Source of the DNA: Waddliaceae bacterium
GTDB taxonomy: Bacteria > Chlamydiota > Chlamydiia > Chlamydiales > SLFE01
Reading direction: 5' to 3'
NCBI GenBank assembly: GCA_963771045.1
Contig: CAVYRW010000004.1
Coordinates: 896,001-960,000, forward strand
Length of the DNA stretch: 64,000 nucleotides
Shown here: positions 5,584-7,134 of the stretch, piece by piece
How the letters are laid out: each line of letters opens with the position of its first letter
How positions within the stretch are numbered: the first letter of the stretch is position 1
Notes under the pieces: model-generated
The model's database searches: none
Seen by the model: only the letters and a program-made list of their open reading frames with translations
Told to the model about the DNA's origin: nothing
Translations under genes and position numbers: made by a program

Positions 5584-7134
5584 ATGAGATCCTTGCCGTT
5601 ACAGGCTTTAAGAGAAAGCGGTTCCCGCCTGATGGCCGCAGCGGTTGCGCGCGCCTTCCCAAGCGCCAAAATTTTAAGGGGAGGAGCGGCAGACATTGGA
5701 TTCTACTACGATTTTTTATTCGAACATTCCGTTGGCAAAGACGCTTTCCCGCTGATTGAGGAGCATATAAGAGCTTTAATCGTTGAAGGGGCCCATGTTA
5801 AAAGCAGCGCCATGATGCGGGAGAATGCCAGGGAATTTTTTAACTATAAAAATGAATCCTTTAAAGCCAAGGAGTTGAAATCCTGCGCCGCAGAGGTGCA
5901 AATTTTGCGAATCGGCGATTTTTATGACGAATGCCCATTGCCTCATCCATCCGACCTTAAAGGATTTAAAGCTTTAAAACTTCTTGATGTCGAAACTTTT
6001 AGCGAAAACGGTAAGGTGGTGACAAGAATAACCGGCACCATTTTTCCCGAGCAAAATCAGTTAAAAGAATTTTTAAAGAAGCTGAAAAATCATTCAAACC
6101 ATCAAGAGTTAGGTTTGCAAAAAAAAATATTCACCCCAATTTCCTCTGATGAAGGGGGTAGGTGGGTTTTGGGCCCCCTTTTTTGCGGAATCATGGATGT
6201 TGTCAAAGGGATTTGGAAGGGTTTTTGTTTCGAAATGGGCGCTGAGGTCGTTTTTAGCGGAAGTGGCAGTCCTCAAGCACTTCTATCCGCTCATGCCGCC
6301 TACAGAGCGGCGATATCCGAAAGCCTCCCTATAAGGATCGCCGAATTTTATCGTAAGCACCCTTGCCTGGCCGGTCTTCTTGGATCAAATGCATGCTGGA
6401 GCGACATGCAGCATGTCTTTTGCGAAGAGTCTCAGGTGCCACGAGAATTGAATTCTTACTTGCATTTCATTGATAAATGGAATAAAATGCTTTCTATTGA
6501 AGGTGAATGGGTTCTTGCATCCTGCGGGAAAAGAGTTCAAAAATCTTCTACTAATTGGGAAAGAGCCGAAGCTTTACTAGTCGAAGCTATTGAGAAAAAT
6601 CAAGCTATTAAGCCCTTGCAAGCCGAGATTACTGCTTCCAATATAGGGCCTAGGCTTGAATATTATTTTGTCGACGAACTGGGCCGGCGATGGCTTGGAT
6701 CCAGTTTGGGGCTTTGGAGAAGTTTCCCTAACATAAACTCAGAGTTAAGACAAGGGCCCCTATGGATAATTGGATGTTCGTTTTTTAACTCGGTTGAGCG
6801 TATAGCGGCATTGCTGCTGGAGAAAGGGAAGGGCTCGTTTCCGTTTTGGGTGCTGCCTGAACAGATGAGAATCTTTCCATTGTCTGAAAAGCAGGAACGC
6901 TATGCGGATGAAATTGAGCTTCAGTGCCGCATGCGCGGCTATAGAGCGAGGTGCGACAAGAGTAGAGGGCCTCTCTCGAAGAAGGTGGAAAAAATGGAAC
7001 GCGACGGAGTTGGTTTTGGACTTTTTATTGGGGATATTGAACAGGAAAAAAACAAAATAAGTATCCGATCGGGTTATGATCGAAGCGAGCAAAAGCTTAT
7101 TGGATTAAACGAGTTTTTCGAGCAAATTGAATAA
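5584..7134 (+). CDS. Degenerate threonyl-tRNA synthetase-like protein (516 aa)
   Basis: ThrRS-like segments GFYYDF, LPIRIAEF, GPRLEYYFVDELGRRW and SVERIAALLLE..G.FPFWVLPEQ, plus an anticodon-binding domain; key catalytic motifs altered. The track start at 5539 lies inside the tRNA, so ATG 5584 is preferred. Confidence 0.85.
   Translation: MRSLPLQALRESGSRLMAAAVARAFPSAKILRGGAADIGFYYDFLFEHSVGKDAFPLIEEHIRALIVEGAHVKSSAMMRENAREFFNYKNESFKAKELKSCAAEVQILRIGDFYDECPLPHPSDLKGFKALKLLDVETFSENGKVVTRITGTIFPEQNQLKEFLKKLKNHSNHQELGLQKKIFTPISSDEGGRWVLGPLFCGIMDVVKGIWKGFCFEMGAEVVFSGSGSPQALLSAHAAYRAAISESLPIRIAEFYRKHPCLAGLLGSNACWSDMQHVFCEESQVPRELNSYLHFIDKWNKMLSIEGEWVLASCGKRVQKSSTNWERAEALLVEAIEKNQAIKPLQAEITASNIGPRLEYYFVDELGRRWLGSSLGLWRSFPNINSELRQGPLWIIGCSFFNSVERIAALLLEKGKGSFPFWVLPEQMRIFPLSEKQERYADEIELQCRMRGYRARCDKSRGPLSKKVEKMERDGVGFGLFIGDIEQEKNKISIRSGYDRSEQKLIGLNEFFEQIE

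Follow-up and report, generated by a model that had tools for sequence, protein, structure and literature searches.

Pseudo-synthetases are known, and those closest to the gene described here keep parts of class II aminoacyl-tRNA synthetases (aaRSs). In threonyl-tRNA synthetase (ThrRS), the part made up of the N2 (editing-domain) fold, a linker and motif 1 clamps the acceptor arm of the tRNA, and this same part became the mitoribosomal protein mL39, which keeps a TGS-like part and has neither a class II core nor an anticodon-binding domain (ABD). Archaeal ThrRS-ed proteins consist of an editing-type domain, of a different, D-aminoacyl-tRNA-deacylase-like fold, together with a degenerate core and an ABD, and AlaX is likewise a free-standing synthetase relative with an editing-type domain. 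HisZ, the HisRS-like domain of Gcn2 and the Pol gamma accessory subunit comprise a class II core, with or without an ABD, used for regulation or binding without aminoacylation; their ancestors were HisRS or GlyRS-like enzymes, and their partners are known. More generally, many pseudoenzymes modulate their active relatives. ThrRS of Escherichia coli represses the translation of its own mRNA, the operator of which mimics the anticodon arm of tRNA-Thr, and its gene, thrS, occupies the position before infC-rpmI-rplT-pheS. Here we examine a 64,000-nucleotide (nt) stretch of the genome of a Waddliaceae bacterium (G000; assembly GCA_963771045.1, contig CAVYRW010000004.1, positions 896,001-960,000, forward strand), hereafter the window, in which that position is held by a paralog of thrS (5584..7134, plus strand). 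Selection acts on this dead, folded copy of ThrRS, which does not serve the organism as its synthetase.

Compared with bacterial ThrS (TIGR00418; structures 1qf6 and 1nyq), the paralog is homologous over N2, core and ABD, but the TGS domain, zinc Cys segment, H511 and HxxxH motif are gone from it, its motif 2 is eroded, and it evolves far faster. What it would have in common with the E. coli autorepression system is a ThrRS scaffold that binds RNA without catalysis and is encoded next to infC; there, however, it is the active enzyme that moonlights, whereas here we find a separate dead copy, and an Rfam scan over 5000-9600 of the window returned a tRNA only and no operator-like structure. Moreover, autorepression in E. 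coli needs the ABD, which more than half of the chlamydial family lacks. With HisZ, Gcn2 and the Pol gamma accessory subunit the paralog, itself derived from ThrRS, shares the non-aminoacylating class II core, the likeness being by fold only.

Lost and surviving features of the paralog

The plus-strand frame is open over 5539..7134, and translation from the ATG at 5584 gives 516 amino acids (516 codons plus the stop), a stop-free run that, given the local base composition, would arise by chance with a probability of about 1e-14. The database protein for the gene (P0002) has 500 amino acids and begins at M17 (position 5632); we prefer the ATG at 5584 because two relatives of the same genus, G001 and G002, conserve residues 1-16 in their copies, and G002 has Leu at position 17. 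The product (pI 8.2) is divided into an N2 module with the editing-domain fold (residues 1-185, 5584..6138, aligned to 1qf6 residues 68-254), a degenerate class II core (residues 186-425, 6139..6858) and a class IIa ABD (residues 426-516, 6859..7131). A phmmer search of the PDB sequences matches it to E. coli ThrRS 1qf6 with an E-value of 7e-34 in two stretches, 6-183 (N2) and 247-513 (core and ABD). Residues were mapped through this alignment and are given in E. coli numbering; the functional roles of the E. coli residues, including the zinc site Cys334/His385/His511, are those that we take to be generally accepted.

In the editing site, H73 and H77 are replaced by E11 and R15, the HxxxH motif reading ESGSR, while D180, C182 and H186 are kept as D115, C117 and H121 (DECPLPH, with its CxxxH) and K156 is kept as K94. 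In the core, the stretch with the zinc-binding Cys, which reads KPMNCP in the genome's own canonical ThrRS, is deleted, and H511 and R512 are replaced by G and C, IHR reading IGC. Two of the three zinc ligands are lost in this way, and only the His385 equivalent, H277, is left. Motif 2 retains R363 as R257, next to the replacement of E365 by H259, Q381 by S273 and D383 by M275; motif 3 keeps its Glu-Arg pair (E405, R406), with G516 changed to N; and the 'TP' of motif 1 in the canonical enzyme reads SGSGS.

Profile searches agree with this mapping. The NCBIfam thrS equivalog model TIGR00418 gives the paralog 173.7 bits, under half of its cut-off of 383.65, and the model for Ser-tRNA(Thr) hydrolase, NF011500, gives 20.6 bits against a cut-off of 362, in the ABD region only. 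Among the Pfam domains, HGTP_anticodon (PF03129) is detected above its cut-off (E 1.6e-10), tRNA-synt_2b (PF00587) falls below it (E 0.0086; 16.6 bits against 29.3), and neither tRNA_SAD (PF07973) nor TGS (PF02824) is matched in the paralog, the open reading frame (ORF) beginning at N2, 8 nt past a tRNA gene. The TGS domain is not strictly defining, as TGS-less proteins with core, ABD and tRNA_SAD exist (P0010, P0025 and others). What the paralog shares with an active ThrRS is the three-domain fold with a class IIa ABD; it departs from one in its TIGR00418 score, zinc site, motifs 2 and 3, TGS domain and editing site.

The original prediction for this gene had claimed an intact 516-codon frame collinear with the editing, core and anticodon domains of ThrRS, which both the alignment and the structural model described below confirm, and its readings of ESGSR for HxxxH, DECPLPH for DLCRGPH and IGC for IHR match the alignment to 1qf6. 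The absence that it reported of the KPMNCP segment and of the TGS domain is borne out by the alignment and by Pfam, respectively. It had further described motif 2 and the zinc site as eroded; the erosion stands, but the motif 2 Arg (R257) and one zinc His (H277) survive.

An AlphaFold2 model of the paralog (predicted local distance difference test, pLDDT, 87.7; predicted TM-score, pTM, 0.82) superposes on ThrRS, in keeping with the comparison that the original prediction had proposed. In a fold search against 48,161 PDB representatives, it matches Staphylococcus aureus ThrRS (1nyq_A) with a Z-score of 31.4 over 506 residues, ThrRS entries comprising core and ABD at Z 27-28, and the E. coli editing domain (1tje_A) at Z 21.7 with a root-mean-square deviation (rmsd) of 1.8 over 153 residues. 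Matches to mL39 (3j7y_7; Z 16.4, rmsd 2.4 over 155 residues) and to non-catalytic class II relatives (the Pol gamma accessory subunit at Z 22.3, the Gcn2 HisRS-like domain at 16.1 and HisZ at 14.8) are also found. The motif 1 helix (198-218) is modelled with a pLDDT of 94 in both ten-residue blocks covering 201-220. A short member of the family described below (G031, 309 amino acids) has a confident N2 (pLDDT above 90) followed by a poor core remnant (31-72), and its model matches 1tje_A at Z 18.2 and mL39 at Z 14.0, with class II cores reaching only Z 7-8. Of the modules, N2 alone reaches high confidence both in the long form of G000 and in the short one of G031, the two forms that were folded. 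From these models we infer that the module common to the family comprises the N2 fold, the linker and the motif 1 helices, with all three domains being kept in the genus of G000.

The canonical enzyme and the slot family

A second gene of the same genome (contig C5, 29276-30946) scores 665.7 bits with the thrS model within a 676-codon stop-to-stop frame. Its product has the TGS, tRNA_SAD, core and ABD domains in Pfam, and its motifs are intact (HTSAH, DLCRGPH, KPMNCPG, FHQDDAH and LHR). The charging of tRNA would fall to this canonical copy, and the earlier proposal of a retained pseudo-synthetase with a working thrS elsewhere is supported by it. A search with the canonical protein gave matches of 70-100% identity only; the named ones are all chlamydial, and no sister from outside the chlamydiae is found among them. 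In a maximum-likelihood tree of 28 paralogs, 9 chlamydial canonical ThrRSs and 17 others, the canonical enzymes form one clade (SH-aLRT 100) and the long-branched paralogs fall outside it without resolved placement; this was a quick search with long branches, and several of its outgroup rows are wrong ORFs.

It is hardly credible that the organism instead relies on the paralog as its ThrRS and that the canonical copy on C5 is a contamination. Such a reading could appeal to the same-genus drafts G001 (88% complete) and G002 (82% complete), neither of which gives a match to canonical thrS. These absences, however, look like assembly gaps, and we keep them as a caveat: in G002, the conserved neighbour gene lies on a contig that stops exactly at the expected thrS start, and in G001, the whole 4.7-kb region around canonical thrS is missing. 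The 46-kb contig C5 agrees with the main contig C4 both in GC content (0.447 versus 0.446) and in tetranucleotide usage (correlation 0.991, against a median of 0.990 for equal-sized chunks of C4). Canonical thrS is present at 667-685 bits in three members of the same family (G003, G004 and G005), the protein collection holds an 86%-identical canonical ThrRS (P0057), and the zinc site for threonine selection is destroyed in the paralog.

The paralog belongs to a family of slot ORFs that we traced across 30 loci, those of G000 and of 29 relatives from many families. All 30 carry an ORF of 242-591 codons that ends between -31 and +175 nt from infC; in 29 of them, tRNA-Val(GAC) lies upstream of the ORF, the remaining locus being cut by the contig end; and infC is followed by rpmI, rplT and pheS wherever the fetched stretch reached that far. 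Five more relatives, which a single-protein search had missed, have diverged slot ORFs with family-profile E-values of 9e-48 to 3e-17, with none in the reversed-sequence controls. A search for related loci with the protein alone gave a single close relative besides unrelated ThrRSs. The gene is present in 34 of the 40 sampled relatives, spanning about 30 families, and is lost in G007, G009 and G024; G039, of family f35, has no match at search level only, and G018 and G026 were counted neither as present nor as lost. The paralog fits this family in its position, its motif losses and the presence of a separate canonical thrS, and its orthologs in G001 and G002 are 82% and 62% identical to it.

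In some lineages with small genomes, the gene was deleted. In family f35 (1.0-1.3 Mb genomes), no more than one ThrRS-like match is given by 25 of the 26 sampled genomes; 24 of 26 give a match to canonical ThrRS only, the exceptions being one with two matches and one that was scored only in part, and the gene was not found in the Chlamydiaceae-like family. Five small-genome loci (L068 of G075, L074 of G009, L075 of G007, L076 of G024 and L080 of G067) are scars of independent deletions of the ORF alone. Databases name the family members variously as threonyl-tRNA synthetase, 'Threonine--tRNA ligase 2' or hypothetical protein, and the ESM Atlas has Chlamydiota clusters of 127 and 85 members named 'hypothetical protein'.

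When the 30 slot ORFs are aligned with six canonical chlamydial ThrRSs (family counts are hereafter per 28 aligned members), the canonical rows keep every motif shown, whereas HxxxH, the zinc Cys segment, the QDDAH block and the H511 histidine are kept in no slot ORF. As all members are dead, the loss of chemistry predates the split of the sampled families. A motif 3 remnant, 'GS.ER..ALL', persists in most members. Pfam detects TGS in none of the 28, the ABD in 13, a weak core match in 10 and tRNA_SAD in 2, and the C-terminal losses stop cleanly at the boundary between core and ABD. Conservation at 60% or more extends to 69 columns, the canonical residue recurring in 47 of them and the other 22 being specific to the family, among these M77 (27/28), N81 (25/28; E in canonical enzymes), G151 (26/28; canonical A) and K165 (24/28), as well as R79 and K161.

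These counts bear on whether the paralog could still be an enzyme, either a deacylase or hydrolase acting in trans through the N2 remnant (D115, C117, H121 and K94) or a protein with an ATP-dependent activity that uses the motif 2 Arg and the motif 3 Glu-Arg. We regard this as very improbable. In this copy, four of the six editing-site positions survive alongside R257, H277, E405 and R406, and the ABD is strongly constrained in the genus; yet the family as a whole does not conserve the residues that survive here: D.C..PH is kept in 9/28 and HxxxH in 0/28, the motif 2 Arg position varies, and K, Q, L or H stands in the column of K94. The comparison with ThrRS-ed and AlaX, to the latter of which the model is matched at Z 16.0 (1v7o_A), meets the same difficulty, with the low NF011500 score, the undetected tRNA_SAD domain and the editing HxxxH missing from every member.

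Two observations on the canonical locus may be added. Assembly or binning of its region seems to be difficult in this genus, and the gene after thrS on C5 (3219-4670 of locus L001) codes for a fusion-like ParA/AAA_31 and UPF0137 (PF03677) protein of at least 484 amino acids; a ParA-like gene presumably also follows thrS in Chlamydia trachomatis.

Selection and transcription at the locus

The ratio of nonsynonymous to synonymous substitutions (dN/dS) was computed by the Nei-Gojobori method on pairwise alignments, the starts of the relatives being taken as the first in-frame start codon. Between G000 and G001 (dS 0.38), it is 0.24 overall, with 0.23 for N2, 0.28 for the core and 0.16 for the ABD; the neighbouring genes give 0.087 (infC), 0.024 (rplT) and 0.147 (the N-terminal part of pheS). 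The ABD has the lowest ratio of the three domains (0.16 and 0.08), while the core is the least conserved part, with 22% pairwise identity and the highest ratio. Outside this genus, the pair G080-G087, which is without the ABD, reaches 0.095 over 435 codons, beside 0.118 for infC, and further genera show 0.15 (G085-G077), 0.18 (G111-G115 and G084-G111) and 0.19 (G084-G105). The six unsaturated within-genus pairs range from 0.10 to 0.24, short ABD-less forms included, and the seven saturated pairs with a computable ratio from 0.12 to 0.24. These alignments indicate that the gene is fast-evolving yet under purifying selection in several independent genera. The check on orthologs suggested with the original prediction has thus come out in its favour, as syntenic orthologs are intact in most relatives and dN/dS is well below 1 in every domain; with orthologs unbroken and a canonical thrS present, the case is one neither of simple decay nor of a sole ThrRS.

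Directly downstream of the paralog on the plus strand follow infC (7150..7662; IF3, with a TTG start, from the ORF list and neighbour annotation), rpmI (7676..7870; L35), rplT (7872..8228; L20) and pheS (8290..9312), an arrangement that upholds the original placement of the gene in the thrS slot of this operon. Neither the wide occurrence of the gene nor the tRNA-Val gene abutting it had been part of the original prediction. Upstream on the same strand, tRNA-Val(GAC), with its CCA encoded (5499..5575; ARAGORN; 68.6 bits with the Rfam tRNA model), ends 8 nt before the ATG at 5584, with no Shine-Dalgarno-like sequence between. A plus-strand TATAAT hexamer (5469..5474), 24 nt before the tRNA, is a candidate -10 element for the whole unit; the hexamer 17 nt upstream of it fits TTGACA at only three of six positions, and the site is absent from the results of the consensus scan. 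A Shine-Dalgarno-like AAGGAAGG for infC (7134..7141, plus strand) starts at the last base of the TAA stop of the paralog. The first terminator-like site downstream of the tRNA on the plus strand, bar a weak 5-pair one inside the ORF, is a hairpin with a T tail after rplT (8242..8271), a consensus match only, and the consensus scan found none between the paralog ORF and infC. Hence, as there is no terminator-like site before the end of rplT and the infC Shine-Dalgarno overlaps the stop, tRNA-Val, the paralog, infC, rpmI and rplT are probably carried on one transcript. Across the family, no more than 25 nt separate the tRNA 3' end from the first in-frame start in 21 of 29 loci, and no more than 10 nt, without a Shine-Dalgarno, in 13 of the 29; such tight abutment would render the mRNA nearly leaderless after tRNA processing.

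An internal promoter for infC is not supported here. Over the 300 nt that precede infC, the best sigma-70-like match averages 7.83 of 12 positions, compared with 7.70 in a control taken from the middle of the ORF; matches of at least 9 occur in 6 of 30 loci against 3 of 30 in the control, and the best in this window reaches 7 of 12; the consensus scan gave no plus-strand site inside the ORF, with the proviso that chlamydial promoters may deviate from the consensus. As for infC itself, its TTG start stands 8 nt after the strong AAGGAAGG. Rare infC start codons are linked to infC autoregulation in other bacteria, and the TTG fits this pattern.

Further upstream, the minus strand carries an 832-amino-acid ORF (1464-3962) without a Pfam match. 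It is paralogous (28% identity over 252 amino acids, E 4e-14) to an ORF of about 1018 codons at C5:26024-29077 that stands divergently beside canonical thrS. This ORF family has three copies in the genome, two of them upstream of the two thrS-like genes, and both of these share 'LRQ...SCFAT'. This is no evidence for an ancient segmental duplication of thrS together with this neighbour, as the adjacency is confined to one bacterial family: a neighbour of the 832-amino-acid type upstream of the dead copy was found only in the family of G000 (G000, G001 and G003), and the 4.3-6.6 kb of upstream sequence fetched for nine other families do not contain it. Between the 832-amino-acid gene and the tRNA lie two further minus-strand ORFs (3993-4751 and 4754-5341; 252 and 195 amino acids) with hydrophobic N-termini and no Pfam match, which, among the loci fetched, are conserved in same-family relatives only.

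A possible RNA-directed role

Because the catalytic residues are lost and yet purifying selection acts on the gene beside core translation genes, a non-enzymatic job is likely. We consider it quite possible, if short of probable, that the paralog is a non-catalytic, RNA-directed (that is, tRNA- or ribosome-binding) accessory protein of translation or scaffold. An RNA-directed role is favoured since the retained scaffold is the tRNA-holding part of ThrRS, since the gene is flanked by those of a tRNA, IF3, L35 and L20, and since mL39 and the mRNA binding of E. coli ThrRS provide precedents. Under such a scenario, an ancestral chlamydia would have had two thrS genes, of which the copy in the old slot before infC would have lost its TGS domain and its chemistry and then been retained for what its scaffold binds. 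The working part common to the family would be the N2 fold with the linker and the motif 1 helices, to which the genus of G000 would add the ABD, its most constrained part, and the protein would be made from one transcript with tRNA-Val, IF3, L35 and L20.

A more specific version of this scenario, which strikes us as distinctly doubtful, makes the paralog the bacterial counterpart of mL39: a chemistry-free, ThrRS-derived factor associated with the ribosome, IF3 or tRNA, having N2 as its working module, expressed on one transcript with tRNA-Val, IF3, L35 and L20, and lost again in the most reduced lineages, including the Chlamydiaceae-like family. Like mL39, it would be an N-terminal module of ThrRS at work in the translation machinery without catalysis, with a matching N2 fold, and its gene stands among those of ribosomal proteins; the chlamydial proteins, however, are not systematically basic, and the likeness here is limited to the N2 fold and the operon context.

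Several findings weigh against an RNA-directed role. Identity between families is 22-30%, as opposed to 52-71% for canonical ThrRS, not one residue is shared by all 28 aligned members, and no new motif resembling an active or binding site was recognised in the family alignment. The ABD is missing from 15 of the 28 members and core deletions differ between lineages, which makes a single, family-wide binding of tRNA through the anticodon unlikely; in the paralog itself, KKVEKME stands in the ABD where the canonical ThrRS of the same genome has KKVRNAQ. Family proteins are not systematically basic, with pI values from 4.7 to 10.0. The gene is deleted in G007, G009, G024, G067 and G075, where tRNA-Val(GAC) then stands 28-319 nt before infC, and neither tRNA nor ORF is found upstream of infC in the four f35 genomes inspected; it is therefore dispensable in these reduced genomes.

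Some of the same findings could be turned into the view that the ORF is an operon relic with no specific function, its frame staying open because of its place between the tRNA-Val promoter and infC, to deliver ribosomes to infC and avoid polarity, and selection merely keeping a highly translated product foldable and harmless. The infC Shine-Dalgarno that begins at the last stop base, the short distance between stop and infC at all 30 loci and the lack of a terminator-like site between the two would suit such a coupling, as would the mosaic domain loss, the want of an invariant residue, the match of 47 of 69 conserved columns to the ThrRS fold core, and the repeated deletions in small genomes that leave tRNA-Val abutting infC. 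In-frame deletions, however, would be neutral for a relic, and yet an ORF of 309-591 codons is kept in 34 of 40 relatives. Likewise, unsaturated pairs with dN/dS of 0.095-0.19 resemble infC in some pairs (0.118, 0.112 and 0.249), the C-terminal losses are clean at the core/ABD boundary, some conserved positions hold residues particular to the family instead of the canonical ones, and infC has a strong Shine-Dalgarno of its own. On balance, we think a relic rather unlikely.

Another alternative departs from RNA altogether and has the paralog bind a protein, most simply canonical ThrRS, by way of the class II dimer interface, to modulate its activity or localisation. The confidently modelled class II core with its motif 1 helix in this copy and the fold matches to the Pol gamma accessory subunit, Gcn2 and HisZ, which are partner-dependent and non-catalytic, are what such a regulator would lead one to expect. 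The core, however, is precisely the least conserved part of the protein and the one with the highest dN/dS, it is only a poorly modelled remnant in the short member folded, and SGSGS stands in place of the 'TP' of canonical motif 1; we therefore doubt that the paralog is such a regulator of its active relative.

Pseudo-synthetases have been described before, but for a bacterial one derived from ThrRS we found none in the full-text literature. Subscription-only papers and supplements aside, this literature likewise yielded no description of a dead chlamydial ThrRS family. The portions available of PMC1175084, PMC11580382, PMC2878342 and PMC9437257 make no mention of one, and the last of these, a 2022 review of duplicated aaRSs, lists for ThrRS, in the part accessible, only the cyanobacterial T2 and the animal ThrRS-L, with no match to 'Chlamyd' (PMC9437257).

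Inferences on metabolism or genome completeness should leave the family genes out of the ThrRS count. If the role in translation proposed here is true, they would encode a lineage-specific factor present phylum-wide, in a group to which relatives of animal and human pathogens belong, and they would represent a natural case in which the function of an aaRS was taken over by a second copy and the old gene was re-used.

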